Source: Candidatus Nanopelagicaceae bacterium (GTDB lineage: Bacteria > Actinomycetota > Actinomycetes > Nanopelagicales > Nanopelagicaceae). Taken from it: 64,000 bases of DNA. Of the stretch, positions 1,158-31,274 are shown piece by piece. Positions within the stretch are counted from its first letter, which is position 1; the number at the start of each line of letters is the position of its first letter. Position numbers and translations under genes: made by a program. The stretch is from positions 2,597 through 66,596 of the forward strand of contig JBJTCN010000076.1 in NCBI GenBank assembly GCA_046091905.1, written 5' to 3'. The notes under the pieces were generated by a model. The model searched no databases and had not been told where the DNA came from. It saw nothing but the letters and a program-made list of their open reading frames with translations.

Positions 1158-2716
1158 TCGACCTCCTTATAAGTTTCAGCTGCGGCACGTCTCTTTGTCA
1201 GATGGAAAGATTCGATAGCAATCGGAACCGGCTTGCTTTCGGCAAGACCAGGTCCACCAGGGATCTCTGTGAAATCTACGCTGCAACCTGAATTCATCGC
1301 TTCTTCTAACTTATCTGCAGTCTCTTGATGAGCAGCAGGGATGACGTAACGATCTTGGTATTTTGCAATAGCCAGAAGTTTGTACATCTCATACATATCT
1401 TCTGCGCTCATGCCTACTGAATTAGGAATTTCTTCATTGAAGTCATTTCCTAAGTTGAAATCGCGCATATAAGAACGCATCGCAGCTAGTTGCTTTAGGA
1501 CTTTATCAATTACCGAAACATCGCCAGCTGACATCAAATTTGCCAAGTATTGCGCTGGAATACGTAAAGTATCGATCGCTGCAAATAGATTACTTACATC
1601 CTCTGCATCATTACCGGTGTTCTTTAGCGCATCAACTACCGGAGATAGCGGCGGGATATACCAAACCATTGGCATGGTGCGATATTCCGGATGTAGTGGC
1701 AGCGCCACCTTATATTTCTTTGCAAGTGCGTAAACAGGGGATTTCTTAGCAGCCTCTAGCCAATCTTCAGGAATGCCATCACGACGTGCTTGCGCAATGA
1801 TTTCTGGATCATTTGGATCAAGAAGTAGATCTAACTGCGCTTCATATAGATCTTTATCATCTTTAACTGATGCTGCAGCTAAAACTTTATCTGCATCATA
1901 AAGAAATAGTCCGATATAACGTAAGCGACCAACACAAGTTTCGGCGCAGACAGTTGGCTGACCAACTTCAAGACGAGGAAAACACATCGTGCATTTTTCG
2001 GCTTTGCCGCTCTTATGATTGAAATAAACCTTCTTGTAAGGGCAACCAGTAACGCACATACGCCATCCGCGGCATTTATCGCCATCGACTAGAACAATGC
2101 CATCTTCACTTCGCTTGTACATCGCGCCTGATGGACATGCGGCAACGCATGCAGGATTTAGGCAGTGTTCACAGATACGTGGCAGATAGAACATAAATGA
2201 TTTTTCGAATTCGAATTTAACTTGATCTTCAATGCCTTTAAGCATTGGATCTTTATGTCCAGTTTCGTAAGTGCCGCCAAGATCATCATCCCAGTTGGCG
2301 CTCCATTCGATTTTCATATCTTTTCCAGTAATCATCGATTTCGGACGTGCAACTGGAGTGGTATCTGTAGTTGGAGAGCTGATCAGATTGTCATAGTCAT
2401 AAGTCCATGGCTCGTAGTAATCATCAAGCCCTGGAAGTTTTGGATTGCTAAAGATTTTAGTTAGGCGATCAAATCTGCCGCCTGATTTAAGTCTTAACTT
2501 TCCATTCTTCTTAAGTTCCCAACCACCTTGCCATTGATCTTGGTTCTCGTATTGGCGCGGATATCCAACGCCAGGACGAGTTTCTACATTGTTAAACCAT
2601 ACATATTCCACGCCTTGGCGATTGGTCCAAGTCTGCTTGCAGGTAACAGAGCAGGTATGGCAACCAATGCATTTGTCGAGGTTCATCACCATTCCGATTT
2701 GAGCCATGATTCTCAT
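1154..2716 (-). CDS. narH: Respiratory nitrate reductase beta subunit NarH (Fe-S)
   Basis: N-terminus MRIMAQIGMVMNLDKCIGCHTCSVTCK, plus further Cys clusters (CEHCLNPACVAACPSGA, CRGWRMCVTGCPYKK). TAATG overlap with narG. Confidence 0.95.
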   Translation of the reverse strand: MRIMAQIGMVMNLDKCIGCHTCSVTCKQTWTNRQGVEYVWFNNVETRPGVGYPRQYENQDQWQGGWELKKNGKLRLKSGGRFDRLTKIFSNPKLPGLDDYYEPWTYDYDNLISSPTTDTTPVARPKSMITGKDMKIEWSANWDDDLGGTYETGHKDPMLKGIEDQVKFEFEKSFMFYLPRICEHCLNPACVAACPSGAMYKRSEDGIVLVDGDKCRGWRMCVTGCPYKKVYFNHKSGKAEKCTMCFPRLEVGQPTVCAETCVGRLRYIGLFLYDADKVLAAASVKDDKDLYEAQLDLLLDPNDPEIIAQARRDGIPEDWLEAAKKSPVYALAKKYKVALPLHPEYRTMPMVWYIPPLSPVVDALKNTGNDAEDVSNLFAAIDTLRIPAQYLANLMSAGDVSVIDKVLKQLAAMRSYMRDFNLGNDFNEEIPNSVGMSAEDMYEMYKLLAIAKYQDRYVIPAAHQETADKLEEAMNSGCSVDFTEIPGGPGLAESKPVPIAIESFHLTKRRAAAETYKEVE

Positions 2717-5700
2717 TAGTAAGTAACCTCCTGTGAACGGCGACGGATAACTGTGACTTCATCACGTTGATTTCCGGTTGGACCGTAGTAATTAAATCCA
2801 TATGAAAGTTGTGCATAACCACCAATTAAGTGCGATGGTTTTAGAAGTAAACGAGTTAAAGAGTTATGAATTCCACCGCGCTTACCGGTTGCTTCAACTC
2901 TTGGAACATCGATGGTGCGATCTTTTGCGTGGTACATGTAGACCAAACCTTCTGGCATACGGTGTGACACCACTGCGCGAGCTACGACAACACCGTTGCG
3001 ATTTACCGCTTCGATCCAATCGTTATCTTTAACGCCAATTTTTTCAGCATCTTCAACGCTCATCCAAATATCTGGTCCGCCACGAGATAGCGCCAACATA
3101 AATAAGTTATCTTGATATTCAGAGTGGATGGACCACTTTGAATGTGGCGTTAAATATCGAACTGCAATACCTAGCTCATCTTGCGCGCCAATCTTTGGAT
3201 AGTTAGATAATGTTGTTAAATTCAATGGAGGCCGGAAGATAGGCATCTGTTCGCCTAGCTCCGACATCCATTGATGATCAAGGAAGAAATGTTGACGCCC
3301 AGTCAATGTATGCCAAGGCTTCAAACGCTCCACGTTGATAGTGAACGGAGAGTATCGACGACCACCGTGTTCACTTCCTGACCACTCCCATGAAGTAATC
3401 ACGCCTTGCGGACGTGATTGAGTATCGGCAAAAGTTATTTGTTTGCCTTCATTATCAAGCGCTAGATCGGCAAGTTTCTGACCGGTGCGCTTCTCTAACT
3501 CTCTAAAGCCAGCAACTGCTACATGGCCATTAGATACACCTGATAACGCCAGAATTGTTTCGCAAGCTTGTTCGGCAGTTTGAAGCAGTGGTCGACCCGC
3601 TGTCAGTGGTTCATGCGAAACACCATTGATATTCTTTAAGTATTCGACTGCCTGACCCTGCTTAAGAGTTACTCCTTTAACTACAGTTCCTAAATTCTCT
3701 ACATTAGGCCCAAGGGTCTGCATCTTCTGTGCAATTGCACTGTAATCACGTTCTACAGTTACAAGTGTTGGCATAGTCTTACCTGGAATTGGTTCACATT
3801 CGCCGAGCTTCCAATCTTTTACAATTCCAAAAGGTTGAGCAGCTTCAGTTGGAGTGTCATGTTGTAGCGGTAGCGCGACGATATCGCTCTGAGTTCCCAA
3901 ATGTTTCTGCGCTAAATGGCTAAAGACTTGAGACATCTTCATAAATGCGTCGTAATCTGTTCGTGCTTGCCAAGGTGGATTGATAGCGGCATTAAATGCA
4001 TGAATAAATGGATGCATATCTGTTGAAGAGAGATCGTACTTCTCATACCAAGTTGCAGCCGGAAGTAAAATATCTGAGAAGAGGCCGGTGCTGGTCATAC
4101 GAAAATCAAGTGAGACCAGCAGATCTAATTTTCCGGTTGGTGCCTCATCGTGCCACTTCATCTCTTTTGGTCGCTTCTCTACCGGAGTCTCTGGTCCGCT
4201 CTGTGCACCTTCAACTCCAAGTAAATGATGTAGGAAATATTCATTTCCCTTTCCGGATGAACCAAGCAAATTAGCGCGCCATACAGTTAATACGCGCGGA
4301 AAGTTAATTGGATTATCAGGATCAGCAACTGCGAAATCTAAAGAACCATCTTTAAGAGATTGGACAACATAATCTTTTGGATCCTTACCTTGTTCTTTAG
4401 CTTCTTTAACAATTGTTAATGGATTCTTATTAAAGGTAGGAAATGATGGCGTCCAACCCATTCGAGTTGCTTTAACTAAAGTATCGGCCATCGAAGTTTT
4501 ACTTAATGTGCCGCGGGAAAGTGGCGAAGTCAGCTCTTCTGCGCCCCATGCGTCATAACGCCATTGATCAGTAGCTAAATACCAGTAAGAAGTACCGGCC
4601 ATCTGGCGAGGTGGACGAGACCAATCTGCGCCAAATGCCAATTGCGCCCATCCGGTAAATGGTCGAGCTTTCTCTTGGCCAACATAGTGCGCCCAACCGC
4701 CACCATTTTTACCTTGGCAACCAGTTAATAAAACTAAAGAAATGATTGCGCGATAGATGGTATCTGAGTGATACCAGTGATTGGTTCCTGCTCCCAATGT
4801 AATCATCGAACGTCCGCCAGAATCCTTTGCATTCTGGGCAAATTCACGTGCAATTCTTTCAACAGTTGCAGCGCTCACCGAAGTAATTTCCTCTTGCCAA
4901 GCTGGGGTATAAAGTGAAGTGGCATCTTCATACGAAGTTGGCCATTCACCAGGCAGACCGTCTCTTCCAACTCCGTATTGGGCAAGGATTAAATCATAAA
5001 CAGTAGTAACTAAATGGCTACCAATTTTTCTTGTTGGTACGCCACGATTGATTATCTCTTCCTTTTCATCAAATCTAGGAAGCGAGATTGCATGGAATTC
5101 ACCATCGTTATAGAAAGATAACTTTGGATCTCTACCTTCTAAATCTAAATTCCACTTACCCATTCCCACTTCGGTATGTCGATCACCAATAGTGCCATTT
5201 GGAATAAATACTTCGTTAGAAGAGCTATCTACCAACAGTGGTTTCCATTCAGATGAATCAACTTCCATACCCAAATCAGATGCGGTTAAGAATCGATCAG
5301 GTGTTAACTTTCCATTAATTTCAGTTAGTGAAACCAAGAATGGTAGATCGGTAAATTTCTTTGAATAATCTAGAAACTCTGGAGTCTCTTTATCAACGTA
5401 GAATTCTTTAAGAATCACGTGACCCATAGCCATCGCAAGCGCGCCATCTGTTCCAGGCTGAGCAGGTAACCACTCATCAGCAAACTTGGTGTTATCTGCA
5501 TAATCTGGGCTGACAGATACGACTTTTTGCCCTTTATATCTAGCTTCAGTCATGAAGTGCGCATCTGGTGTTCTCGTCGTTGGGATATTAGAACCCCACA
5601 TAATTAAATAGGAAGCGTTCCACCAATCTGCAGATTCAGGAACATCTGTTTGATCTCCCCAAATTTGTGGTGATGCAATTGGTAGATCGCAATACCAATC

Positions 5701-19839: not shown

Positions 19840-20034
19840 TAATAACTCCCACGATTTTTAAAACTTTTGAGACTCGCGTATTTTATCAGTAGAAATGGTT
19901 CGCTTATAACCGCAAAATCAAGCTAAGAAATAGCGATTTACAATGATTTTTCGCGAGAAAAACTGATAGTGACTCTCTTATTAATCCATGCTAAAATTAT
20001 CCTTCTGCTTAACTCTTCTCCTGAAAGGCGTTAA

Positions 20035-20517
20035 ATGTCATTTAAGGTCGGCGAAACAGTTGTTTATCCTCATCACGGCGCAGCTCTAATCGAAGCAATC
20101 GAAAAACGTGTGATTAAAGGTGAAGAGAAGACCTACTTAGTTTTAAAGGTAGCTCAGGGCGATTTAACAGTCCGAGTACCAGCAGATAATGTGGATTTAG
20201 TTGGTGTACGAGATGTAGTTGATTCCGCAGGACTTGATCGCGTATTTAACGTATTGCGCCAGCCATACACCGAAGAACCAACCAACTGGTCACGTCGTTA
20301 CAAAGCAAATCTAGAGAAATTGGCTTCTGGCGATGTTATTAAAGTCGCAGAGGTAGTGCGCGATCTTTATCGTCGCGATTTAGACCGCGGTCTTTCAGCT
20401 GGCGAGAAGCGTATGTTGGCTAAGGCAAAGCAGATTTTGGTTTCAGAGTTAGCGTTGGCAGAACGCACCGATGAGGAAAAAGCAGCAACTATCCTCGACG
20501 AAGTACTTGCCTCATAA
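20035..20517 (+). CDS. carD: RNA polymerase-binding transcription factor CarD
   Basis: [20 protein letters not shown]... is the typical CarD/CdnL N-terminus. 160 aa. Confidence 0.95.
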
Positions 20518-21151
20518 ACTTTTAGTAATAGTTACGGTTGGCAGTCCTTTAGCGCTTCAACCGCTTAATGGAAGCAATCTTTTATCCGCAGCGCTTTCAT
20601 CTGCCTATCAATTCTCTGCCGAAACCAGCATTTCAAATCAATTATATGTCGCGGCGCAAGATTTAAATGCTGTTCGAGAAGCTACTAAAGGTATATCAAT
20701 AAATTTTTTGGACCTTGAATGTGACCCTAATAATCCAATTGAATTGGTAAAAGCAATTCAACCTTTGGAATTTGAAATGGTGGCAATACATGATGCGCAG
20801 CGGCCATTAACGCGAAGTACCCAATTTCATCGCACTTTAGAAGGTTTGTTTGGTTGCGATGCAGTTCGACCAACCATGGCATTTACGGAAACTTTGAAGG
20901 CGGTAAATGAATCATCTGAGCTTACGCACACAATTGATCGGACCAAATTTCGTCGCATTTCGAGCCCAGAAATTATCCGTCGCACAGTAATCGATTTTTC
21001 AGGAGGCGAAAGTAGTTGGATGGTTCCGTTAGTCAAGGAAGCTCGACTTTCAGAAGTAGAAGCAGATCCTGATTCAATTAGAATCAACAACGCAGAAGAA
21101 ATTACGCTGATGGAGGCTTTCCTTCATTGGCAACAGAAGATCGCTAAATAA
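20471..21151 (+). CDS. Degenerate IspD-like protein at the ancestral ispD position (pseudoenzyme or decaying gene)
   Basis: Keeps IspD-like blocks ([32 protein letters not shown]). The CTP-binding loop AAGxGxR...K is replaced by [10 protein letters not shown]. The only canonical start I found upstream of the IspD-like region is the ATG at 20471, which overlaps carD by 47 nt. Confidence 0.55.
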
Positions 21152-21161
21152 TTTAGATAAA

Positions 21162-21449
21162 TTACTTACCAAAGAGATTTTTGATCTCTTCCCAGAACTT
21201 CCGTGGCTGACCAAGGGCTTGACCTGGAAATTCAGTAAAAGTCTTCGTAGGGTTGCGCCAAAAGCGGCGCAATAACCTAAATGGCTTTGTTTTAATTCGA
21301 TGCTCTAAATCTTTTACATAAGCAACGCGTAAATCATCAGGCTCATGTTGCACCTTTGTTTTACAAACAGTGCAGGTTGTAGATGCAAGCAAACGGCCGG
21401 CATAAACAAGTTCGTGCACAGTTTCGGTCTTGCAATGTGCGCATTCCAA
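21162..21449 (-). CDS. Zinc-ribbon protein, function unknown
   Basis: CAHC...CTVC pairs in the first 33 residues and a basic C-terminus. Starts 22 nt downstream of ispD on the same strand. Confidence 0.5.
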   Translation of the reverse strand: MECAHCKTETVHELVYAGRLLASTTCTVCKTKVQHEPDDLRVAYVKDLEHRIKTKPFRLLRRFWRNPTKTFTEFPGQALGQPRKFWEEIKNLFGK

Positions 21450-21471
21450 AGTCGCGCTTATTGATTCGTGC

Positions 21472-22164
21472 TTAATCTTTATACCCCCTCTTTGCTAGAA
21501 CGTGTTCGGCAATCGCCAAATCCTGCGGATAGGTAATCTTTACATTTGTCGGTTCGCCTGTCACGGAGTGCGTCTTAATTGATGGAAAGTATCTCTCAAT
21601 ACAGGCACCCGTGTCAGTACCGGTAAATGAATCTTCAGCAGCTTTCAAGTAAGCCGATAGTAGCTCTTTGGCAATAAAACCTTGCGGGGTTTGTACGCGA
21701 ACTACTGGCACGTTCTGTTTAATATCCATTTCAATTGGCTCAACAGTAATCGTCGGAATCGCACCGCCATGTGTAACTGCTTCGGTAGCAATCTCTTTAA
21801 ATAAAGTAGGAGTGGCAAGCGGACGAGCACCATCGTGAATAAGCACCACATCGATTTCGCCCGAATCGATTCCGCTTCGTAAATGTATTAGCGCCTGATA
21901 TTCAGATTCATGGCGGGTTGCACCACCATAAACAATCTCAACTTTTAATTGCGGTACTTCGCGAGCTAAAACTTCTTTAGCCATCGCTTCATCATCTGGG
22001 TGAATAACCAAGACCAGGCGCGCTTTGTTAAAAGGCTTTGCTGCATTAACAAGAGATCTACTAATAATTCGACGGCCAGATAGGGGTAGCCAAACCTTGT
22101 TGGTACTGTGGCCAAAACGGGAACCAGAACCGGCTGCTAAAACAACGACAGCTGTGCGTTTCAT
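21472..22164 (-). CDS. ispD: 2-C-methyl-D-erythritol 4-phosphate cytidylyltransferase IspD (intact motifs)
   Basis: VVVLAAGSGSRFGHSTNKVWLPL, IHDGARPL, RVQTPQGF and VKITYPQDL are all present. Confidence 0.85.
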   Translation of the reverse strand: MKRTAVVVLAAGSGSRFGHSTNKVWLPLSGRRIISRSLVNAAKPFNKARLVLVIHPDDEAMAKEVLAREVPQLKVEIVYGGATRHESEYQALIHLRSGIDSGEIDVVLIHDGARPLATPTLFKEIATEAVTHGGAIPTITVEPIEMDIKQNVPVVRVQTPQGFIAKELLSAYLKAAEDSFTGTDTGACIERYFPSIKTHSVTGEPTNVKITYPQDLAIAEHVLAKRGYKD

Positions 22165-22190: not shown

Positions 22191-22454
22191 ATGTGGCTTC
22201 CGAAGAGATTACGTAAGTCCACCGACCCTGTGGCAAAAGCTGCAGAGATAAAGGCTAAATTCGAGGCGAAGCGTAAACAACAGGGGTTATTTACTCCAGC
22301 ACAAGAAGCGTTGATGGATGAACTTGGTTTAAAGCCAGGAAGTAAAAAATCTGAATCGAAATCGAAACGTATTAAAAATACGAAAGCGCGCATTCCTCTG
22401 ACCGCGCGCCAACGTAAATTAGCTGAAGAACTTGGACTTATAAAGCCCGATTAA
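22191..22454 (+). CDS. Hypothetical small basic protein with an internal two-fold repeat
   Basis: 87 aa. Repeats LFTPAQEALMDELGLKP and LTARQRKLAEELGLIKP. It is the only + strand ORF inside the island, and coding status is uncertain. Confidence 0.35.
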   Translation: MWLPKRLRKSTDPVAKAAEIKAKFEAKRKQQGLFTPAQEALMDELGLKPGSKKSESKSKRIKNTKARIPLTARQRKLAEELGLIKPD

Positions 22455-22470
22455 GTTCGATTAATAACTC

Positions 22471-23763
22471 TTAGGCGTAGGTAAGTCCCATCGCATCTTG
22501 CTGGCGACGTAACTTCACGATTAATGAATCTTCATTTAGTTCAACATGATCGTAAGTTAATAGCTCGCCAGCTTTAATTGCTCTAACAATTGTGGCACCT
22601 TGAACCAAACCAATTGGTACCAAATTATCTCGCTTGGCATCCTTTGCAACATCTGCATAACCACGGACTGTGTATCCACCGATACCATCAATCTTGTCGC
22701 CAGGATTTAGTTCCTTCTTGGTCATACATACAACTTCTGCCATCAAACTTTCAGCATAAAGTGAAGATTCGCGATCGATAACAGCGCGTGCAACTGTCAT
22801 TGGAGCCTCTACCGACGCTAAGTGATATGGACGGTATAGCGCGAAATATGGACCAGGGCCCATTGAAAGGTATGACATTTCATGTGCAACATAAGGTGAA
22901 TCTGTTCGAACAATTACGAAAACACCTGGTGCTACATCGCCGGTGCAGTAATCAACTACACCTGGGCGATCTAAAACGCCGCCATCTGCTTGCAATGCGA
23001 AAGTCTCTTGCAGAGTTTTAACTGAAGAAGCCGGGCCATACATACCGCGCTTAGATAGCTCTAGCCCAGTGGTATTTGCCAGCGCTACCATCTCAGTCAT
23101 GGTCTTTGAACCATCAGTGAAAGAGCAGAGCATCTTCGGATTCATCTTCTTTGCATTTGCGCGATCACGTACCGTATCTGGATTGCTAAATGGTTCGAAG
23201 GGATTATTTTTACCTTTTCCAGCACAGACAATTTCAAAATTCAAATCTCTCGCAAAATCAACTAAAACTTTGGCCTCAACTGGTTCATCACCATGGCAGA
23301 CCGCATAGATTGCGCCGTTTTCGACCGCTTTCTTATTTAGCAATGGCCCAATAGTTACATCCATTTCCACGTTTAGCACAGCGATATCTTTCTTCGCCTC
23401 TAGCGCGCTATAGGTGATTTGCGCCCCGATATCCGGAACGCCAGTGCACTCAACAATAAAATCGATAGCTTCTAGGTCGCTAAGGAACTCGGTAGTGGTA
23501 GTTCCGGCTGATTTTCCTTCATTTAGAGCTTTTGCAATCTCTTTGGCGTCATTGCTGATGACTACATCAGAGACGCCAAGATCTTTAAATAGCTCAGTGA
23601 TGCGATTGGTATCAATATCAATAACTAAACGAACTGAAAGTCCTTGCATACGATGAACTTGGTTTCCAAAGCCACGCCCCATCTGACCCGCACCAACTAA
23701 GCCAATTCGAACGTCATGACCCAATTGTTTTGCGTGTTCTAATAATTTGTGACTGTATGCCAC
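22471..23763 (-). CDS. NAD(P)-dependent oxidoreductase of the COG4091 / SAF-domain family (DRL-like, 'predicted homoserine dehydrogenase')
   Basis: N-terminal Rossmann motif IGLVGAGQMGRG. 430 aa. The middle block GKGKNNP...DGSKTM.EM and the C-terminal SAF-like block (IKAGELLTY) are typical of the family that includes Brucella DRL. Family assignment is from motif recognition and no search was run. Confidence 0.6.
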   Translation of the reverse strand: MAYSHKLLEHAKQLGHDVRIGLVGAGQMGRGFGNQVHRMQGLSVRLVIDIDTNRITELFKDLGVSDVVISNDAKEIAKALNEGKSAGTTTTEFLSDLEAIDFIVECTGVPDIGAQITYSALEAKKDIAVLNVEMDVTIGPLLNKKAVENGAIYAVCHGDEPVEAKVLVDFARDLNFEIVCAGKGKNNPFEPFSNPDTVRDRANAKKMNPKMLCSFTDGSKTMTEMVALANTTGLELSKRGMYGPASSVKTLQETFALQADGGVLDRPGVVDYCTGDVAPGVFVIVRTDSPYVAHEMSYLSMGPGPYFALYRPYHLASVEAPMTVARAVIDRESSLYAESLMAEVVCMTKKELNPGDKIDGIGGYTVRGYADVAKDAKRDNLVPIGLVQGATIVRAIKAGELLTYDHVELNEDSLIVKLRRQQDAMGLTYA

Positions 23764-23793: not shown

Positions 23794-24159
23794 TTAGTTT
23801 CTTGCAATAATTTCGAACTTATCGCCAACATTAATTATTGGCATTGGTCGAGCTTCAATATTGGTATCACCAGGAAGCTCAGCTTCATTTAATCCATTTG
23901 CCTTTAAATCTAAGTGCCCCAAATTTAATAAATTTTCAGAAACAACCGAACCAACTGCAAGCACATTGAATTCTTCATTGTTAATTCGTATTAAATCGCC
24001 AACTAATGGAGCTCGTTGGCTAATTTCAACTTTGTGTAGTACCGAAAAGTCGTGAAGCTCTTCGGGAGCGCCTTCGCCAAAGAACACAAGAATTCCTTGA
24101 TCTCGAAAATCTGATACTAATTCTCCGACTGCGGTGACCGTAGTTGAATAAACGACCAT
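23794..24159 (-). CDS. srlB: PTS glucitol/sorbitol-family EIIA component
   Basis: 121 aa. FGEGAPEEL...AVGSVVSENLLNLGHLDLKANGLNEAELPG is colinear with E. coli SrlB. Confidence 0.85.
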   Translation of the reverse strand: MVVYSTTVTAVGELVSDFRDQGILVFFGEGAPEELHDFSVLHKVEISQRAPLVGDLIRINNEEFNVLAVGSVVSENLLNLGHLDLKANGLNEAELPGDTNIEARPMPIINVGDKFEIIARN

Positions 24160-24530
24160 TACGCCGGCTTGATGTTTTCGGGCTTTACTCCAGATACGAA
24201 GAGATCTTTGGTGATAAACATCGCAAGTGGCCCAGCAGGGCTAGCCGCGTGGATATCAACTGTAAGCACTTTCTTCATTGGATAAACACCGACGCGGGCA
24301 GTACCGCCGCAGTCAATAACTGCAACTGCAATCTCATCAAATGGCTTTGAAGATTTGAAACCATCGAATGGCTCGCCGCCAGTGGCATCTGCAATTGCTT
24401 GTGCCACCGGATGTATTCCACCACCTGTTACAGAATAAATATATTTCTTTTTATCGGTTGGCAGGACTTCAAGTGGGCCGCCCCAGCCACCTTTACCTGC
24501 TTCAATAATGACTTTTTTATAATTTCCCAT
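24159..24530 (-). CDS. srlE: PTS glucitol-family EIIB domain protein (equivalent to the N-terminal third of SrlE)
   Basis: GKGGWGGPLEV and AVAVIDCGGTARVGVYP (phospho-Cys motif). It has its own AGGAG RBS. Confidence 0.85.
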   Translation of the reverse strand: MGNYKKVIIEAGKGGWGGPLEVLPTDKKKYIYSVTGGGIHPVAQAIADATGGEPFDGFKSSKPFDEIAVAVIDCGGTARVGVYPMKKVLTVDIHAASPAGPLAMFITKDLFVSGVKPENIKPA

Positions 24531-24585
24531 TGTAACTCCTAGATATTTACCTTAGTAATTGAGTGAATCTTACGTACTAAGTAAT

Positions 24586-24621
24586 CGAGGGCCAAAGTGA
24601 ATTTCTCCACTCTGGCCCTCG
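24586..24621 (-). promoter_or_regulatory. Strong intra-operon hairpin between the EIIC2 and EIIB genes
   Basis: CGAGGGCCAAAGTG-(8 nt)-CACTCTGGCCCTCG, 13/14 bp paired. It starts 8 nt after the EIIC2 stop. No U-tract follows on the minus strand. Confidence 0.5.
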
Positions 24622-24629
24622 AATACTCT

Positions 24630-25178
24630 TTATTTACTTACGGAGTAAAGTCCAAAGCTTGCAAAGTAAGCAATTACTACTGAAAGCGGACCGGTTACCA
24701 AGCGGCTAAATAGAACCGCAGGCACACCAACTTCAACAGTCTCTGGTTCAGCTTCGCCAAGAGCGAGACCTACCGGAATAAAGTCGCAACCAACCTGTGG
24801 GTTGATTGCAAATAGTGCTGGTAATGCGTATTGGGCAGGAATATTTCCCTTGCCGATTTCCACACCAAGCAGAGTTCCAACGATCTGTGCAATAACAGCT
24901 CCTGGTCCAAGCAATGGAGATAGAACTGGAAGAGCACAAACGATTGAGATTAATAGCAAACCTGGAAGTGAAGAAGCGGAACCCTTGATTCCCTTTGCAA
25001 TCCAGTCGCCGACACCGGTTGTAAGAATTAAACCGATGATGAAAGAGATAAACGCCATAAATGGAATGACGTTACGAATTACTGTATCAACAGTGTCACG
25101 ACCAGCCTGATAGAGAGTTCCAACTACTCCACCAACGCTGCGGCCGATTCTTGTAAGAAATGCGCTAATGCCACCCAT
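24630..25178 (-). CDS. srlE: PTS glucitol-family EIIC2 membrane component (equivalent to the C-terminal part of SrlE)
   Basis: FLTRIGRSVGGVVGTLYQAGRDTVDTVIRNVIPFMAFISF resembles the SrlE membrane half. It has its own GGAGG RBS. Confidence 0.8.
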   Translation of the reverse strand: MGGISAFLTRIGRSVGGVVGTLYQAGRDTVDTVIRNVIPFMAFISFIIGLILTTGVGDWIAKGIKGSASSLPGLLLISIVCALPVLSPLLGPGAVIAQIVGTLLGVEIGKGNIPAQYALPALFAINPQVGCDFIPVGLALGEAEPETVEVGVPAVLFSRLVTGPLSVVIAYFASFGLYSVSK

Positions 25179-25182
25179 GTTC

Positions 25183-25779
25183 TTATGCCTCCTTCTTCGC
25201 CATCATGCGAGCGGTAATCCACTCAGTCACGATGCCGCGAATAAAGATAACTACTAGGCCAACAAGTAAGTAACGAACTGCTAGGTCTCCAAGACCTAAA
25301 CCAAGTTGCGTAATACCTGTTGCAATACCTACATACACGAACAATTCGCCTGGGTTTGCGTGAGGGAAAATTCCCAGGATTGGGTGAACGAATGAAACAG
25401 CAGAATCGTAGAAAGCTGGCTTGTAACGCTCTGGTAAGAAGCGTCCCATTGTGTATGCCATTGGGTTTGTTAATACGAATACCGCTACGAAAGGAAGAAT
25501 GATGTAACGAACTGGGTACCACTGGATACCTGGTCGCGCAGCAGCCTTACCTAAGTTTTCAATCTTCTCAGGTCCGATGATTCGAACGAGAGCGTTTACA
25601 GCAGTTAGCAGCACAACAAGAGTTGGAAGAATTCCGCCCATAAGTGAGAGCAGAACTGATCCACCTTTGTTGAAAACTTTAATAAAGTCTTCAGCTGCCG
25701 TAGCCAATGCGCCAAGTACGCCGGTTGGCTTATCAACGGTTACCTCCGCTAAGCGGTAACCAACTGATAGTAGGTTCAA
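25183..25779 (-). CDS. srlA: PTS glucitol-family EIIC1 component
   Basis: GRFLPERYKPAFY...FPHANPGELFVYVGIATG matches SrlA. TTG start with GGAGG 6 nt upstream. Confidence 0.85.
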   Translation of the reverse strand: MNLLSVGYRLAEVTVDKPTGVLGALATAAEDFIKVFNKGGSVLLSLMGGILPTLVVLLTAVNALVRIIGPEKIENLGKAAARPGIQWYPVRYIILPFVAVFVLTNPMAYTMGRFLPERYKPAFYDSAVSFVHPILGIFPHANPGELFVYVGIATGITQLGLGLGDLAVRYLLVGLVVIFIRGIVTEWITARMMAKKEA

Positions 25780-25860
25780 TGCACACCTCCTAAGTGTGTC
25801 GTGGGATCAATAAGTCAGTTACGACTTATTGGAAACAAACGCCCGTACGGTGATCGTTTG

Positions 25861-26277
25861 CTATTCCGCATCGTCAGATTTACTGCGATTAATATGAGCA
25901 TCGATATGTTCTGCCGCCATCCGTGTAGCGTCAGTTATCTTCTGCTTTCTATTCGCAGCAACTCGGTCGCCCGAGATTATTTCTTTGATGTGGAATCCTT
26001 TGTAATCAGTAAAGGGCTTACCTTTTGCCATTACTGTGATGCCGGTAAGTAGTAATCCATCGGAAACTACTCCGTTTTTATCTGCTAAAAGTGCAACATA
26101 TGAGCGACCACCGCGATAGCGCCTGCCACCTACTCCGATTGCGACAATACCGCCGTCGATGCTTTTACGAAGGTCTGCTAACTGTTTCTGAAAACGATTG
26201 GCTTGCCGCCAAGCTAGAAATAACTGGAAAGCCCAGGCAATACCTAGAACTGTAAATAGCGTACCTAGACCGCTCAT
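25861..26277 (-). CDS. gutM: GutM-like glucitol operon activator
   Basis: N-terminal TM segment plus AWRQANRFQK, and a GutM-like length if started at MSGLGTLF (ATG at 26275-26277, ATGA overlap with the sorC stop). The ORF-track start at 26328 is unlikely. Confidence 0.65.
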   Translation of the reverse strand: MSGLGTLFTVLGIAWAFQLFLAWRQANRFQKQLADLRKSIDGGIVAIGVGGRRYRGGRSYVALLADKNGVVSDGLLLTGITVMAKGKPFTDYKGFHIKEIISGDRVAANRKQKITDATRMAAEHIDAHINRSKSDDAE

Positions 26278-27272
26278 GCTGTTCGTGCCTCCGAGCCAGA
26301 TAAAAATTTCAAAATAGCATTTGCACAAGCCAAATCTAAAATTAATTGATCAACTAATTTGCTGCGAGCAGCTCCTACAACTCCAAGCACTTTATCTGCA
26401 CCTGTAGCCACACCAATTACCCGAGGAATTTTTCTAACTTCATCTAAAGAAAGCCCTATGACTCGGCTATCAATGGCAGTTGAAAGGATTTTGCCTTGCG
26501 CATTATAAAAACGCGCTGCGATATCACCTGCCATATTTCTAAAAATAGATTCACGTTCAGACTTGGGTAAGCCAAATTCCTCGACCAACATCTCAGAAGA
26601 TGTAGATCCTGCAGAGCCAATGCCTACCAGTGCAACGTCCGCTTTACGTGCCACATTTAAAACTCTAGTAACTGCTGGTTCGGCCATTAACGAATCGCGA
26701 GTTTTCTGTGAGCTCACTACAACTGGTGCGCTAAAAGGTATGAAATCTGCATTTAAGTTACGAGCAAGTGTGCGGCCTACTTCTTCAGCGCTTACCGATG
26801 TAATCACATTGGACATAGAGCCCATTAATTGAGTAACCTTCAAACCGGGAAGGCTATCTTTGCGACAATTAACTACAGTAGCTTCAAGACCGCGCCCCCA
26901 AGAAATCGCAATAGTTTGATTGGCCCTTAAACCTTTTTGCAATGTTTGCGCAGCGCTTCTACCTACGGCATTTAAAGCTAAGTCATTTCTATCAGGGGCG
27001 ATAACTTGTATTTCATCAATTCCAAGCTTTTCGATTAATTGTTGCGCTAGATAATCATGTCGAGATGTAGGCGCAATGATTCGAATTTCAACGTAACCTA
27101 AACGTTTCGCCGCGGTAAGCATTCTGGAGATATTTGAACGAGAAGTATTTAATTTAGAAGCAACTTGATCTTGTGAAAGCTCATCTTCGTAATAAAGGCG
27201 CGCGGCTTGCAAAATAAGCTCGGTTTCGCGCTGTTTCATCAAGATCCGATCTACCTGATCTACTTTGACCAA
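26274..27272 (-). CDS. SorC-family sugar-binding transcriptional regulator
   Basis: LQAARLYYEDELSQDQVASKLNTSRSNISRMLTAAKRLGYVEIRI HTH region, plus a sugar-phosphate binding domain. Confidence 0.85.
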   Translation of the reverse strand: MVKVDQVDRILMKQRETELILQAARLYYEDELSQDQVASKLNTSRSNISRMLTAAKRLGYVEIRIIAPTSRHDYLAQQLIEKLGIDEIQVIAPDRNDLALNAVGRSAAQTLQKGLRANQTIAISWGRGLEATVVNCRKDSLPGLKVTQLMGSMSNVITSVSAEEVGRTLARNLNADFIPFSAPVVVSSQKTRDSLMAEPAVTRVLNVARKADVALVGIGSAGSTSSEMLVEEFGLPKSERESIFRNMAGDIAARFYNAQGKILSTAIDSRVIGLSLDEVRKIPRVIGVATGADKVLGVVGAARSKLVDQLILDLACANAILKFLSGSEARTA

Positions 27273-27380: not shown

Positions 27381-28421
27381 TTAAATGTGGGCAATGAGGT
27401 GATCTAACAAGTTGGCTCCATCATAAAAATCAAGCGCTCGCAGGTCGATAGTCAGTGAAAGCGAGAGCGCGCCCTGCAAATCCACGCCGACATTTAGCGC
27501 CGTGCTTTGATTTGGAAAGAGCACTGGCCTATTGGATGCCATCTTGTAACTTGTTAAATCAAAGATGGTGGTGGTGGCGCCGTTTAACATTGCAAGTGGA
27601 ACTTTGCCATTCATAGCTTGTTCGGTAGTTGTTGCGACTAATTGGATCAGAGAAGTAAAATCCAATTGGTCTGGGTTTTTAAATACGGGAAGAGCACTTC
27701 CGTACTTTGATTCGATAATTAATGCGACACCAATATCCGTTAATCCGAAACCTCTTAAAGTCTTTGCCCAATTAGCTAGCAAGTTGGCATGCCACTCAGC
27801 TTGGCCTGCGGAGCGCTTCTGCACTGCGCGAGTAAATGAAGTCTGTGCAATGCCCAAGTTCATCTCAATGCCCTTGGCAATTAGAGCTTTATTGGCTTCT
27901 TTTCGAGCTGTGATTGCTGGGTCAATATTCGAATTTAAAACATCTTCGTAAGAGATTGTTTCAAATGGCCCCGTTGGATGAATAGTTTTCAGATCTATTC
28001 CCTTTTCCGTCGCTAGCTTTCTTGCAGCAGGTACGGATTTTGGGTTGTCATTTATAATTACAGAATCTGCTACTACAGGGGCAACTGGAGTCGCAACCAC
28101 AGGTGGAACCCCTGCCTCACTTGCATTGTCGTTGGGCTCGGACATATCGAAATCAAAACTCAAGATTTGAGATTGGGTCTCCATAATCAAAACGGGTTTA
28201 CCAATTTCCAACACTGCACCAGGTGCTGCAACCAGTTTTTCGACTATTCCATCAGCAGGAGCTTCGACTTCCATGTCAATCTTGTCGGTCATTACTTCAA
28301 AAAGCACGTCTCCAGCTTTCACTTCTTGTCCTTCAGAGACATGAAAACCAATTAATTCGCCGGTTTCCATAGTCATGCTCATCTTTGGCATCACAACTGT
28401 GTGCTTGAAACTCATCGCCAC
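27381..28421 (-). CDS. Lipoyl-domain E2-like protein with a shortened, motif-eroded acyltransferase core
   Basis: The lipoyl domain is intact ([17 protein letters not shown]) and a peripheral subunit-binding domain is present ([14 protein letters not shown]). The core has [10 protein letters not shown] where GGTFTISNLG is expected, and [10 protein letters not shown] where DHRxxDG is expected. Confidence 0.75.
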
Positions 28422-29410
28422 TGCCTAACAATTTCTACAGCAGCGGCGTAAATATCTTCAACTTGTGGTACCGCAGCTTTTTCAAGTTGTGGCGCGTAAG
28501 GAATTGGAATATTTAGACCAGCAAGTTTCTTAATAGGCGCTTTTAATGACCCAAAAACATGTGAACCTGCAACTTGGGCCACAATTTCATTGATAAAGCC
28601 ACCATGTGATGGACCTTCTTGGACGACCAATAAACGACCAGTAGAAGTTACTGAATCAAAAGTTGTCGTCATATCAAGCGGAGAAATAGTGCGCGGATCG
28701 ATAACAGTTAATTCGATACCTTCAGATGCGAGTTTCTCTGCTGCTTCGAGAGCTTTCATTACCATAATTCCGGTAGCGACTACAGTTAAATCTTTACCAG
28801 TACGAATTACTCGACTTACACCAAGTGGAATTCGGGTATTCCCTTCAGGCACAGCCTCCCAGCCAGGAGTTTTGTACAGCAATTTGTGTTCTAGGAAAAC
28901 AACTGGATTAGGATCATCAATTGCGGAAAGTAAAAGTCCTTTTGCATCTGAAGGATTTGATGGAACTACAACTTTTAATCCTGGAACATTGGTAAACCAA
29001 TTCTCAACAATCTGTGAATGTTGTGCCGCCGCACCGGTACCTGAACCTTGTGGAGCGCGGATAACCATCGGAACATGTAGCGCGCCACCTAACATAAAGT
29101 GAATTTTCGCCGCTTGGTTTGCAATTTGATCCATTGCTTGTGCAGAAAAGTCAGAGAATTGAATTTCTGCAATCGGGCGCATTCCAGAAAGTGCAGCACC
29201 TACCGCTGCTCCAATGTATCCAAGTTCAGAGATTGGTGTATCGATTACGCGATCTGCACCAAACTTTTCAAACATTCCAGCAGAGACACCAAATGCGCCG
29301 CCATAAATACCGACATCTTCGCCCATTAAAAACACTTCTGGACGTTCTTCCATGGCAATGGTCATTGCTTCACGAACAGCTTCTGCCATGGTCAACATGC
29401 GATCTGACAC
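28412..29410 (-). CDS. acoB: TPP-dependent 2-oxoacid/acetoin dehydrogenase E1 beta subunit
   Basis: MAEAVREAM...FLMGEDVG...VIDTPISE pattern. 10-nt overlap with the E2 gene. Confidence 0.8.
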
Positions 29411-30421
29411 TTACATTTTTCCAATCTGTGAATCCATGAATACCGCGGCTTCAAGACTGGCAGGATCTGACGCTTTTGCTTTAACTGATTCATTAACGGC
29501 CGCGATTATTTCATCAGTTGCTTGTTGTTGCACCGCATCCATCTCTTCCTGAGTTAAAAGGTTTTTCTCATGGAGTAGAGACATAAATTTTGCTATTGGT
29601 TCTTTAGTTTTCCACTCTTCAATTTCTTCTTTAGTGCGATAAAGATTTTTATCAGAACGAGAATGACCTTTCCAACGATAAGTCACACATTCAATTAATG
29701 TTGGGCCAGCACCGTTGCGGGCTGATTCAATAGCTCGTTCGGCTGCCTCGTAAACAGCAACTACGTCATTGCCATCAACTGTCACACCAGGAATTCCATA
29801 ACCAAGTCCGCGGTCTGCGAGATTTTCTAGCGCAAATGCTTTTTCAGTGGAATTAGACATTCCATATTTATTATTTTCACAGACAAAAACCACTGGTAAT
29901 TTCCAAATTGCGGCCATATTTGCAGCTTCATGAAAAGCACCTTCATTAAGAGCACCATCGCCGAAAAAAGAAACGGCGATTGTTTCTCTCTTCATCAATT
30001 TAGATGCAAGTGCCGCACCAGTTGCAATAGGAATTCCACCAGCCACAATTCCATTTGCGCCAAGATTGCCGGTTTCAACATCAGCAATATGCATAGAACC
30101 GCCGCGACCGCCGCAATAACCAATTTCTTTTCCTAGGAGCTCTGCAATCATGCGAGTGAGATCAGCACCTTTTGCGATGCAATGTCCGTGGCCGCGATGT
30201 GTTGAAGTAATTTGATCAGTAAGCTTAAGAGCCATACAGACTCCGGTAGGAGAGGCTTCTTGGCCAATTGATAAATGCATGGTTCCGTGCATCATTCCTC
30301 GACCAAACAAATCTTCAACAGCTTCTTCGAATTTTCGAATCTTCCACATGTAAAGAAGTGCATGTGATGCGTGCGCTTTAGAAGAGAGCGGGTGGCCAAT
30401 TAGTAAATTTTTTGTCGCCAT
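29411..30421 (-). CDS. acoA: TPP-dependent E1 alpha subunit, acetoin-dehydrogenase (AcoA) type
   Basis: HLSIGQEA, STHRGHGHCIAKG and GDGALNEGAFHEAANMAAIWKLPVVFVCENNKYGMS (TPP motif). The THRGHGHCIAKG block is characteristic of the AcoA clade, in my recollection. Confidence 0.75.
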   Translation of the reverse strand: MATKNLLIGHPLSSKAHASHALLYMWKIRKFEEAVEDLFGRGMMHGTMHLSIGQEASPTGVCMALKLTDQITSTHRGHGHCIAKGADLTRMIAELLGKEIGYCGGRGGSMHIADVETGNLGANGIVAGGIPIATGAALASKLMKRETIAVSFFGDGALNEGAFHEAANMAAIWKLPVVFVCENNKYGMSNSTEKAFALENLADRGLGYGIPGVTVDGNDVVAVYEAAERAIESARNGAGPTLIECVTYRWKGHSRSDKNLYRTKEEIEEWKTKEPIAKFMSLLHEKNLLTQEEMDAVQQQATDEIIAAVNESVKAKASDPASLEAAVFMDSQIGKM

Positions 30422-30432
30422 TAATCTACTTT

Positions 30433-30464
30433 CACATATGTGCAGATCGCTGAACAGATGTTCA
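30433..30464. promoter_or_regulatory. Two palindromes in the 78-nt divergent region between the E1 alpha gene and ptsH
   Basis: CACATATGTG (30433-30442) and TGAACA-GA-TGTTCA (30451-30464). Confidence 0.35.
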
Positions 30465-30499
30465 TATTTAACAGGAGAAGATTCAATTACGCTAGCCCA

Positions 30500-30778
30500 A
30501 TGAAGGAATTTCTCACAAAAGTAGGTTCTCCAGTGGGGCTACACGCCCGCCCAGCATCGCTATTTGCAAAGGCTGCTAAGGAATCTGGATGCAAAGTTTC
30601 ACTTGCCAAGATCTCTGAAGATGGCAGTGAATCTCCTTTTGTCGATGGTGTATCGTTATTAAAAATTATGGCGCTTGGAATTAAATGCGGCGAATCAATC
30701 AAAGTGCAAGTCGAAGGCGATAATGAAGAAACCGCAGCTGCGGCACTGCAAGCAATTGTTGAAAGCTCCGATCACTAA
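30500..30778 (+). CDS. ptsH: Phosphocarrier protein HPr
   Basis: Starting at the ATG at 30500 places GLHARPA with the His at residue 15. 92 aa. The longer GTG-initiated ORF from 30440 is not supported. Confidence 0.85.
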   Translation: MKEFLTKVGSPVGLHARPASLFAKAAKESGCKVSLAKISEDGSESPFVDGVSLLKIMALGIKCGESIKVQVEGDNEETAAAALQAIVESSDH

Positions 30779-30785
30779 CTTCTAT

Positions 30786-31274
30786 ATGTCTATAAATAAT
30801 CTACGAACCGGTGTCGGTGTTGATGCGCATAAGTTTGTGCAATCGGCATCTGATGGACCATGCCATTTGGCAGGTTTGGAGTGGACAGAAAGTAATCGTT
30901 TGGAAGGCCATTCAGATGGCGATGCCGCAGTGCACGCGCTATGCGATGCCGTCTTAGCAGCCGCCGGTTTAGGAGATGTGGGACAAGTATTTGGAATTGA
31001 TAAACCAGAATGGAAGGGCGCAAGTGGCACAAAGATGATTGAACATCTGCGCACTTTGATTTCGGAAAAGGGAATTGAAATCAATAATGTTTCGATTCAA
31101 ATTGTAGGAAATACACCAAAGATTGCTAAACGCCGCGATGAAGCCCAGCAAGTCTTATCAAAAGCACTTGGCGCACCTGTCACAATTGGCGCTACTACTA
31201 CTGACACAATGGGATTTACTGGACGCGGCGAAGGGGTATTCGTGATTGCAAATGCTTTGGTGCGTCTGCCATGA
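30786..31274 (+). CDS. ispF: 2-C-methyl-D-erythritol 2,4-cyclodiphosphate synthase IspF
   Basis: GVGVDAHKF...GHSDGDAAVHAL...TTTDTMGFTGRGEG. The ATG at 30786 gives the normal ~160 aa length. Confidence 0.9.
   Translation: MSINNLRTGVGVDAHKFVQSASDGPCHLAGLEWTESNRLEGHSDGDAAVHALCDAVLAAAGLGDVGQVFGIDKPEWKGASGTKMIEHLRTLISEKGIEINNVSIQIVGNTPKIAKRRDEAQQVLSKALGAPVTIGATTTDTMGFTGRGEGVFVIANALVRLP

Follow-up and report, generated by a model that had tools for sequence, protein, structure and literature searches.

Convergent IspD-like genes downstream of carD

We analysed a 64,000-nucleotide stretch of DNA (the window, on contig C76) from the genome of a Nanopelagicaceae bacterium, in which two convergent IspD-like genes occupy positions 20471–22164. 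The source genome, G000, is a 1.33-Mb metagenome-assembled genome (MAG) that is 92% complete, with a GC content of ~44%; records related to it carry the label Candidatus Planktophila or Nanopelagicaceae and belong to the freshwater acI Actinomycetota. Current annotation names both genes IspD or calls the first hypothetical. We refer to the gene that follows carD as copy 1 and to its convergent neighbour as copy 2:

20035–20517, plus strand: carD, with the Pfam domains CarD_C and CarD_TRCF_RID, 94–100% identical across the family and heading a carD–copy 1 operon.
20471–21151, plus strand: copy 1 (ispD'), with an IspD fold and no P-loop, a likely start at TTG 20507 (214 amino acids, aa) and a proposed role as arm donor.
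21472–22164, minus strand: copy 2 (ispD2), an IspD placed as xenologous by phylogeny, with the full catalytic and cytidine triphosphate (CTP)-binding core and with the β-arm hairpin deleted.

Upstream of carD lie phoU, senX3-regX3 and a lipoprotein-like gene. In other genera of the same family, the order carD-ispD-ispF-cysS-rlmB is uninterrupted and represents the ancestral arrangement; copy 1 therefore sits in the ancestral ispD slot and the remainder is an insertion. In G000, ~9.5 kb of mostly minus-strand genes separates copy 1 from ispF. A promoter scan of the region returned a single promoter-like site, at 19969–19997, upstream of carD.

An earlier sequence-only reading of the window had described copy 1 as an eroded ispD that remains open over 226 codons, and the frame (20471–21151, plus strand) indeed contains no stop. 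Our alignment (A2) bore out the loss of the CTP-binding loop, in which the P-loop is replaced through an eight-residue deletion and where copy 2 has AAGSGSRFGHSTNKVWLPL, as well as the changes of NIKVT to SIRIN and of TPQ to SPE. Furthermore, GGxxRxxS is replaced by CDPNNP, and Lys213 by Arg. Copy 1 lacks every CTP-binding and catalytic element and is predicted to be catalytically dead. It retains IHDAQRP, TETLK (Thr140 and Lys142) and TIDR (Arg157); Thr140 and Arg157 correspond to Thr129 and Arg145 of the 214-aa protein. Its Pfam IspD match is partial, covering residues 92–174 at 38.8 bits against a cut-off of 27 bits. The reported 47-nt overlap of its start with carD applies to the ATG, but not to TTG 20507, which gives the 214-aa protein, overlaps the carD stop by 11 nt and agrees with the start called in most copy 1 orthologues (MPHKL.../MPKLSV...).

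The AlphaFold2 model of copy 1 is confident (predicted local distance difference test (pLDDT) score 94.2, predicted template modelling (TM) score 0.89) and keeps the hairpin strands at 130–133 and 139–143. Foldseek returned the Mycobacterium tuberculosis IspD structure 3Q80 as its best match (E = 3e-15, TM score 0.77), and the best matches were all mycobacterial IspDs.

Copy 2 has a full-length Pfam IspD match of 132 bits (same 27-bit cut-off) and a complete core, comprising the P-loop GxGxR...K (Arg20, Lys27), GGxxRxxS, HDxARP (HDGARP), (Q)TPQ, TD(D/E) (GTD) and NxK(V/I)T (Lys213). It had been said to carry every IspD motif, which does not hold: a 13-residue deletion in the β-meander removes D-T-x-K (Thr140 and Lys142) and x-D-R (Arg157). 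The deletion is seen both in alignment A2 and in a HMMER alignment to Bacillus subtilis IspD, and the AlphaFold2 model of copy 2 (pLDDT 95) has no hairpin at 141–154. Neither copy reaches the cut-off of the IspD equivalog model TIGR00453, copy 2 scoring 142.8 bits against 181.3. This score is higher than its 72.6 bits against the ribitol-5-phosphate cytidylyltransferase model, for which the cut-off is 166.

Reciprocal losses, constraint and distribution of the pair

The β-meander of IspD, which projects beyond the core, provides the main interface of the dimer (PMC5099578). Its Thr140 hydrogen-bonds the methylerythritol (ME) hydroxyls, and the Francisella T141E variant is inactive (PMC3111433). 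We compared core and arm positions in a census of 115 IspD-like proteins, using E. coli numbering. Canonical IspDs (n = 38) keep all core and arm sites. Copy-2-type proteins (n = 43) keep the core, with Arg20 and Lys213 in 43/43, Lys27 in 42/43 and Gly82, Arg85 and Ser88 in essentially all, and have lost the arm, with Thr140, Lys142 and Arg157 each present in 0/43. Copy-1-type or degenerate proteins (n = 34) show the reciprocal pattern. Arg20 and Lys27 are found in 0/34, the cytosine-binding residues are lost and Lys213 is mostly Arg; Thr or Ser at position 140 and Arg157 are kept in 34/34, and Lys142 and Asp156 in 33/34. Across 28 degenerate members, only the equivalents of D106, P110, K142, T154, D156, R157 and P166 are invariant. 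The 21 copy 1 sequences of the clade itself all lack Arg20 and Lys27 and all keep Asp106, Thr140, Lys142 and Arg157, while Arg109 is kept in 19.

Both copies have neighbouring orthologues in other members of the genus and in two sister genera. Copy 1 orthologues form an intact frame of 184–234 codons in all 17 related genomes read, and open frames are also present at three further loci (L103–L105). In-frame stops in five copy 1 orthologues were considered as signs of pseudogenization and rejected, as all of them lie upstream of the true start, within the carD overlap. Using a codon model on 18 sequences, with the carD-overlapping part left out, we obtained a dN/dS ratio (ω) of 0.087 for the whole of copy 1, with twice the log-likelihood difference (2ΔlnL) to ω = 1 amounting to 1446. 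The N-terminal third (ω = 0.148, 2ΔlnL = 266) and the C-terminal two thirds (ω = 0.071, 2ΔlnL = 1192) are both constrained, and copy 2 gave ω = 0.068 (2ΔlnL = 2034). Pairwise Nei–Gojobori dN/dS values were 0.07–0.20 for copy 1, 0.05–0.08 for copy 2, 0.02–0.03 for the adjacent DRL gene (described below) and 0.07–0.28 for ordinary neighbour genes. In a metagenome protein database, the copy 1 protein is represented by 293 clusters at 90% identity.

The dN/dS comparison across relatives that the sequence-only reading had called for thus revealed purifying selection. Its description of copy 1 as decaying is not borne out, given a constraint close to that on copy 2, the absence of disruption in orthologues and the confident fold; its alternative, that copy 1 has become a pseudoenzyme, pointed in the right direction. 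Nor would a useless gene be expected to persist here, since the same streamlined genome has cleanly deleted dxr (see below).

Wherever both copies lie on one contig in the clade, they are adjacent and convergent. The arrangement extends well beyond it: a core-dead, arm-retaining open reading frame (ORF) converges on a copy-2-type gene in Nocardioidaceae, Mycolicibacterium and other actinobacterial loci. In Nocardioides and related loci, the arm-retaining partner follows carD, as in G000. In Mycolicibacterium and Mycobacterium sp. loci, the pair lies away from carD and from methylerythritol phosphate (MEP) pathway genes. We considered whether the Mycolicibacterium pair belongs to a biosynthetic cluster for another substrate, but its neighbours (an MFS transporter, LtrA, patatin and AMP-binding enzymes) are uninformative. 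In one Ktedonobacterales genome and one Pseudonocardia genome, the arm-retaining dead partner occupies a separate locus, and in genome G054 this partner is again convergent to the copy-2-type gene. At three actinobacterial loci, a shrunken partner of ~100–180 residues lies downstream of carD on the minus strand (L120:10641–11201, L121:10684–11226 and L124:11492–12028), with the arm motifs PVTDTVK...YDR, PMTETVK...VPRE and PVTDTLK...ADR. Culturable carriers of the arm-retaining gene include Mycolicibacterium frederiksbergense DSM 45364 and Kineosporia babensis JCM 31032. Related genomes also hold candidate evolutionary intermediates, namely a canonical IspD together with a copy-2-type gene, a full-length dead partner and an arm-only mini-partner.

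In a Pfam census that covered 22 genomes besides G000, and with GlmU-type N-terminal matches set aside, G000 and at least 12 others (G014, G023, G054, G064, G067, G068, G069, G071, G072, G078, G079 and G080) have no IspD-like genes but the two of the pair. The remaining genomes carry a canonical IspD or another full-length copy that could supply an arm, with one exception, a fragmentary Ktedonobacterales MAG considered below. One genome of the genus, G012, has the pair and also, on a separate contig, a canonical IspDF-like gene (C81:2637–3272, in a 385-aa frame), which may stem from contamination (4%) or be an ancestral copy that was kept. We also searched 1.84 billion cluster representatives with a profile of the degenerate family; of the best 150 clusters at 50% identity, no fewer than 99 had lost the core and kept the arm.

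Origin and metabolic setting of the inserted genes

To place the two copies, we built trees of 77–115 IspD-like proteins, using a quick posterior mean site frequency (PMSF) tree with support from the Shimodaira–Hasegawa-like approximate likelihood-ratio test (SH-aLRT) and approximately unbiased (AU) tests. Copy 2 nests, with 98% SH-aLRT support, among copy-2-type genes of Nocardioidaceae, Mycolicibacterium, Pseudonocardia, Kineosporia and Ktedonobacterales. This clade groups with non-actinobacterial IspDs, and a branch with 96% support parts them from canonical actinobacterial IspDs, copy 1 and the other degenerate forms. Forcing copy 1 and copy 2 together as sisters costs 26.7 log-likelihood (lnL) units and is marginally rejected (p-AU = 0.042). 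Forcing copy 1 together with the canonical resident IspD of the family changes lnL by +0.11 and is not rejected (p-AU = 0.50). In a sequence search of the PDB, the best match of copy 2 was B. subtilis IspD, and those of copy 1 were mycobacterial IspDs. A quick LG+G4 tree that set all degenerate forms outside the functional IspDs was discarded as possible long-branch attraction; a mixture model moves them to the canonical actinobacterial side.

The phylogeny that had been proposed as a check on xenology versus duplication hence separates the two genes: judged by its position in these trees, copy 2 is a xenologue and probably not a sister of copy 1. A search for its donor returned homologues of which the best 120 all belong to the same clade. 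Descent of copy 1 from the actinobacterial ispD next to carD is compatible with these results. It may nevertheless have arrived with the module instead of eroding in place, because distantly related actinobacteria have this pair too, in some cases without carD nearby. The functional displacement of the resident gene that had been proposed for this locus is not supported in its plain form: a foreign copy 2 took over the catalytic half, whereas the arm half is retained in copy 1 and lost from copy 2.

The other genes between copy 1 and the resumption of the ancestral operon are as follows:

21162–21449, minus strand: zn95, an accessory gene downstream of copy 2 for a 95-aa small protein with a CxxC...CxxC pattern (zinc-ribbon-like).
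22191–22454, plus strand: an 87-aa ORF on the opposite strand between copy 2 and DRL, kept in large-island relatives.
22471–23763, minus strand: DRL (DXR-II; PF21135), a predicted alternative deoxyxylulose phosphate (DXP) reductoisomerase.
23794–27272, minus strand: sorbitol-type phosphotransferase system (PTS) components IIA, IIB, IIC2 and IIC1, a GutM activator and a SorC-family regulator (Pfam).
27381–30421, minus strand: E2 (lipoyl), E1-beta and E1-alpha of an acetoin/pyruvate-dehydrogenase-type complex (Pfam).
30440–31274, plus strand: HPr (30440–30778, PF00381), then ispF, with a YgbB domain at residues 44–196 of ORF 30675–31274.

After HPr, the ancestral operon picks up again on the plus strand with ispF, cysS and rlmB. 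The gene for HPr, a PTS phosphocarrier, thus stands directly upstream of ispF and on the same strand as ispF-cysS-rlmB. Neither zn95 nor the 87-aa ORF has a Pfam or NCBIfam match. zn95 is conserved at 59–94% in relatives under strong purifying selection (dN/dS 0.01–0.07). It also adjoins copy-2-type genes in G054 and at three other loci (L106, L107 and L123), and is absent from a compact subclade of relatives and from Nocardioides-type loci. The 87-aa ORF shows 49–85% tblastn identity in island-bearing relatives with dN/dS of 0.04–0.23, and is probably a real gene judging from this conservation.

The pair lies in genomes with an altered front end of the MEP pathway. Canonical DXR (PF02670) is missing in 20/20 genomes of the genus and likewise in the two sister genera (22 genomes, one of them 100% complete); DXR-I is present in the other 15 sampled genera of the family and in 22 of 24 other families. 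Relatives show the order aminotransferase-dxr-rseP-ispG-proS at the dxr site. In G000 (C32:2055–5822), the aminotransferase (2055–3371, minus strand) is followed by an 83-bp gap, rseP (3455–4645), ispG and proS, so that dxr is cleanly gone. IspE, IspF, IspG and IspH are present in G000 and the clade; the ispE gene of G000 is split across contig ends by the assembly (C20:17227–17448 and C18:86–670).

G000 and at least 12 further genomes with the PTS and E1/E2 island, all of them incomplete MAGs, yielded no DXS (TIGR00204). The gene found beside dxs in relatives abuts, in G000, an unrelated ORF (C62:1–1968 and the end of C36). DXS is present in a PTS-less subclade (G003, G006, G010 and G014), in G011, where it is split over two contigs, and in G023. 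Its loss from the island-bearing genomes is probable.

DRL matches the Brucella structures 3UPY and 3UPL with E = 1e-96 (1.4e-96 to 3UPY). Residues read off the alignment by the numbering of PMC3847144 show conservation of Gly121, of the substrate-anchoring Lys191, Lys193 and Thr229, and of Arg320 and Tyr322 at the dimer interface, together with the substitutions His250 to Tyr, Glu174 to Val and Val351 to Met. Close DRL homologues (71–97% identity) occur only in the DXR-less clade; more distant DRL-like proteins (32–48%) are found in G039 and G054, two genomes that have retained DXR-I. Since 22/22 clade genomes lack DXR-I and have kept ispE to ispH, we infer that DRL acts as the DXP reductoisomerase.

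DRL adjoins copy 2 in every clade genome that has both on one contig, and it takes the place of the sorbitol-6-phosphate-dehydrogenase gene in a gut-type PTS operon. The module of PTS and DRL, with copy-2-type IspD and zn95, recurs in the unrelated Actinomycetota MAG L107, where the whole series E1/E2-SorC-GutM-PTS-DRL-copy 2-zn95 accompanies the pair. It is also present in the Ktedonobacterales locus L123 and, divided between two loci, in G054. In the compact subclade (G003, G006, G007, G010 and G014), DRL and copy 2 are the only genes between copy 1 and ispF, and there is no PTS, which marks these two genes as the indispensable core. The lack of DXS in G000 and most other island-bearing genomes suggests that the island supplies DXP or MEP, either by PTS import or by E1-dependent synthesis. 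The sorbitol PTS of Salmonella reportedly transports methylerythritol (Testa et al. 2004, as cited in PMC3994034).

A proposed composite IspD and its relation to known systems

We propose, with a probability of about 0.6, that copy 1 and copy 2 together make up a heterodimeric MEP cytidylyltransferase whose single active site is composite. CTP binding and catalysis would fall to copy 2, through Arg20, Lys27, GGxxRxxS, HDGARP, QTPQ, GTD and Lys213, while the β-arm of copy 1 (Thr140, Lys142 and Arg157) would complete the MEP pocket of copy 2 in trans; the second site of the heterodimer would be dead. In its likely history, an acquired foreign IspD formed mixed dimers with the resident carD-linked IspD, and the two genes then lost complementary halves. 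The proposal draws on the reciprocal residues, the similar constraint on both genes, their strict linkage, their co-occurrence away from carD and the lack of any other IspD. From these we infer that the two proteins physically heterodimerize and that Thr140 and Arg157 act across the interface.

Several points weigh against this proposal. The E. coli numbering follows a reference sequence entered by hand, albeit one that reproduces all well-known residue numbers. Thr140 and Arg157 reportedly reach into the partner's active site in the E. coli IspD structures of Richard et al. from 2001 and 2004; our literature searches found no statement that the two residues act in trans. The shortened arm of copy 2 might weaken any dimer, hetero or homo. 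The branch of copy 1 is very long (1.25–1.5 substitutions per site), which weakens its placement in the tree. Finally, a copy-2-type gene with no detected partner occurs in the fragmentary Ktedonobacterales MAG, G065, the sole such case.

The partnerless gene of G065 would be expected if copy 2 were self-sufficient, working on its own as a monomer or homodimer whose MEP pocket has been remodelled, and if copy 1 had a separate non-catalytic role, for instance as a sensor of MEP or a sugar phosphate or as a partner of CarD. Copy 1 is translationally coupled to and co-transcribed with carD, with no promoter-like site of its own in the region, and it keeps half of a ligand pocket (HDxxRP, Thr140 and Arg157). 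We consider this unlikely, as it leaves unexplained why the residues missing from copy 2 are the very ones that are invariant in copy-1-type proteins (34/34), why the pair stays adjacent away from carD, in Mycolicibacterium and L107, and why the shrunken partners keep just the arm.

It is less probable still that DRL, copy 2 and the PTS act outside the MEP pathway on another polyol phosphate, in a TarJ/TarI-like CDP-polyol or a catabolic route. The position of DRL in a dehydrogenase slot would fit such a role, as would the occurrence of the module in genomes that contain DXR-I, such as G054. The score of copy 2 below the IspD equivalog cut-off, its weak match to ribitol-5-phosphate cytidylyltransferase and the presence of TarI structures among its PDB matches point the same way. 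However, DXR-I is missing from all 22 clade genomes, including the complete one, and dxr was cleanly deleted; no other IspD is present, yet ispE, ispF, ispG and ispH are kept; and the compact subclade retains DRL and copy 2 without a PTS. DRL also retains Lys191, Lys193 and Thr229, which anchor fosmidomycin and substrate (PMC3847144), and copy 2 matches IspD models with better scores than TarI models.

That copy 1 is a pseudogene relic of a displaced resident ispD, open by chance or through its overlap with carD, is scarcely credible: it would account for the loss of all catalytic motifs, the partial Pfam match and a dN two to four times that of copy 2, but not for ω = 0.087 outside the overlap (likelihood-ratio statistic 1446), gene bodies free of stops and frameshifts in every orthologue read, 293 metagenome clusters, a confident fold and retention in a streamlined genome that removed dxr entirely.

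On a wider proposal our confidence is evenly divided. An obligate heterodimeric IspD made of reciprocally degenerate paralogues would occur in many Actinomycetota and some Chloroflexota (at least about 100 arm-only clusters at 50% identity), and would be joined in the clade studied here by a replacement of the front of the MEP pathway. In this replacement, DXR would have given way to DXR-II and DXS would mostly have been lost, and the PTS and E1/E2 may import or make deoxyxylulose or methylerythritol phosphate. The isoprenoid supply of these abundant freshwater acI bacteria may then depend on an imported precursor, because DXR is absent and DXS mostly absent.

If the composite heterodimer exists, it would be a clean natural case of an essential enzyme whose active site was split between paralogues by complementary degeneration. 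Pathway reconstructions would count two enzymes here, or miss that neither gene may suffice alone. The pair also bears on IspD-directed inhibitors for the actinobacteria that carry it, as IspD is a drug and herbicide target that is usually treated as a simple homodimer.

Both copies share the fold of canonical homodimeric IspD/YgbP (E. coli 1INI and 1I52; M. tuberculosis 2XWN and 3Q80; B. subtilis 5DDT), and copy 1 fills the carD-ispD-ispF slot. The same chemistry is predicted for the pair, that is, conversion of MEP and CTP to CDP-ME. The canonical enzyme dimerizes via its β-meander arm and has a core and an arm in each subunit and two active sites per dimer, whereas here these functions are divided between two genes, with one site predicted per heterodimer. 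The locus also resembles TarI/TarJ, in which a gene for an IspD-fold cytidylyltransferase stands beside one for a polyol-phosphate oxidoreductase. It differs in that copy 2 falls below the ribitol-5-phosphate cut-off (72.6 against 166 bits) and in that no other candidate is present for the IspD that these genomes need.

The loss of DXR-I in carriers of DXR-II follows the class A pattern known for DRL/DXR-II, the Brucella abortus enzyme (Sangari et al. 2010; Carretero-Paulet et al. 2013, PMC3847144). The present DXR-II differs in its linkage to an IspD gene and a sorbitol-type PTS, and in Tyr and Val at the positions of His250 and Glu174. Actinobacteria are not among the DXR-II carriers named in the 2013 survey, which come from Alphaproteobacteria, Firmicutes, Chloroflexi, Betaproteobacteria and Fusobacteria (PMC3847144).

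Neither heteromeric nor reciprocally degenerate IspDs turned up in our literature searches, which took in a 2026 review on the diversity of isoprenoid pathways in bacteria. Pairs of an enzyme and a dead paralogue are already known in other families. Trypanosomatid deoxyhypusine synthase (DHSc/DHSp) and AdoMetDC/prozyme are heteromers of an enzyme and its dead paralogue with shared active sites. They resemble the IspD pair, as proposed here, in that an impaired enzyme needs a degenerate paralogue, that the active site lies at the interface and that both genes are under purifying selection. They differ in fold, pathway and domain of life; the putative IspD heteromer is reciprocal in its losses, bacterial and spread over many lineages.

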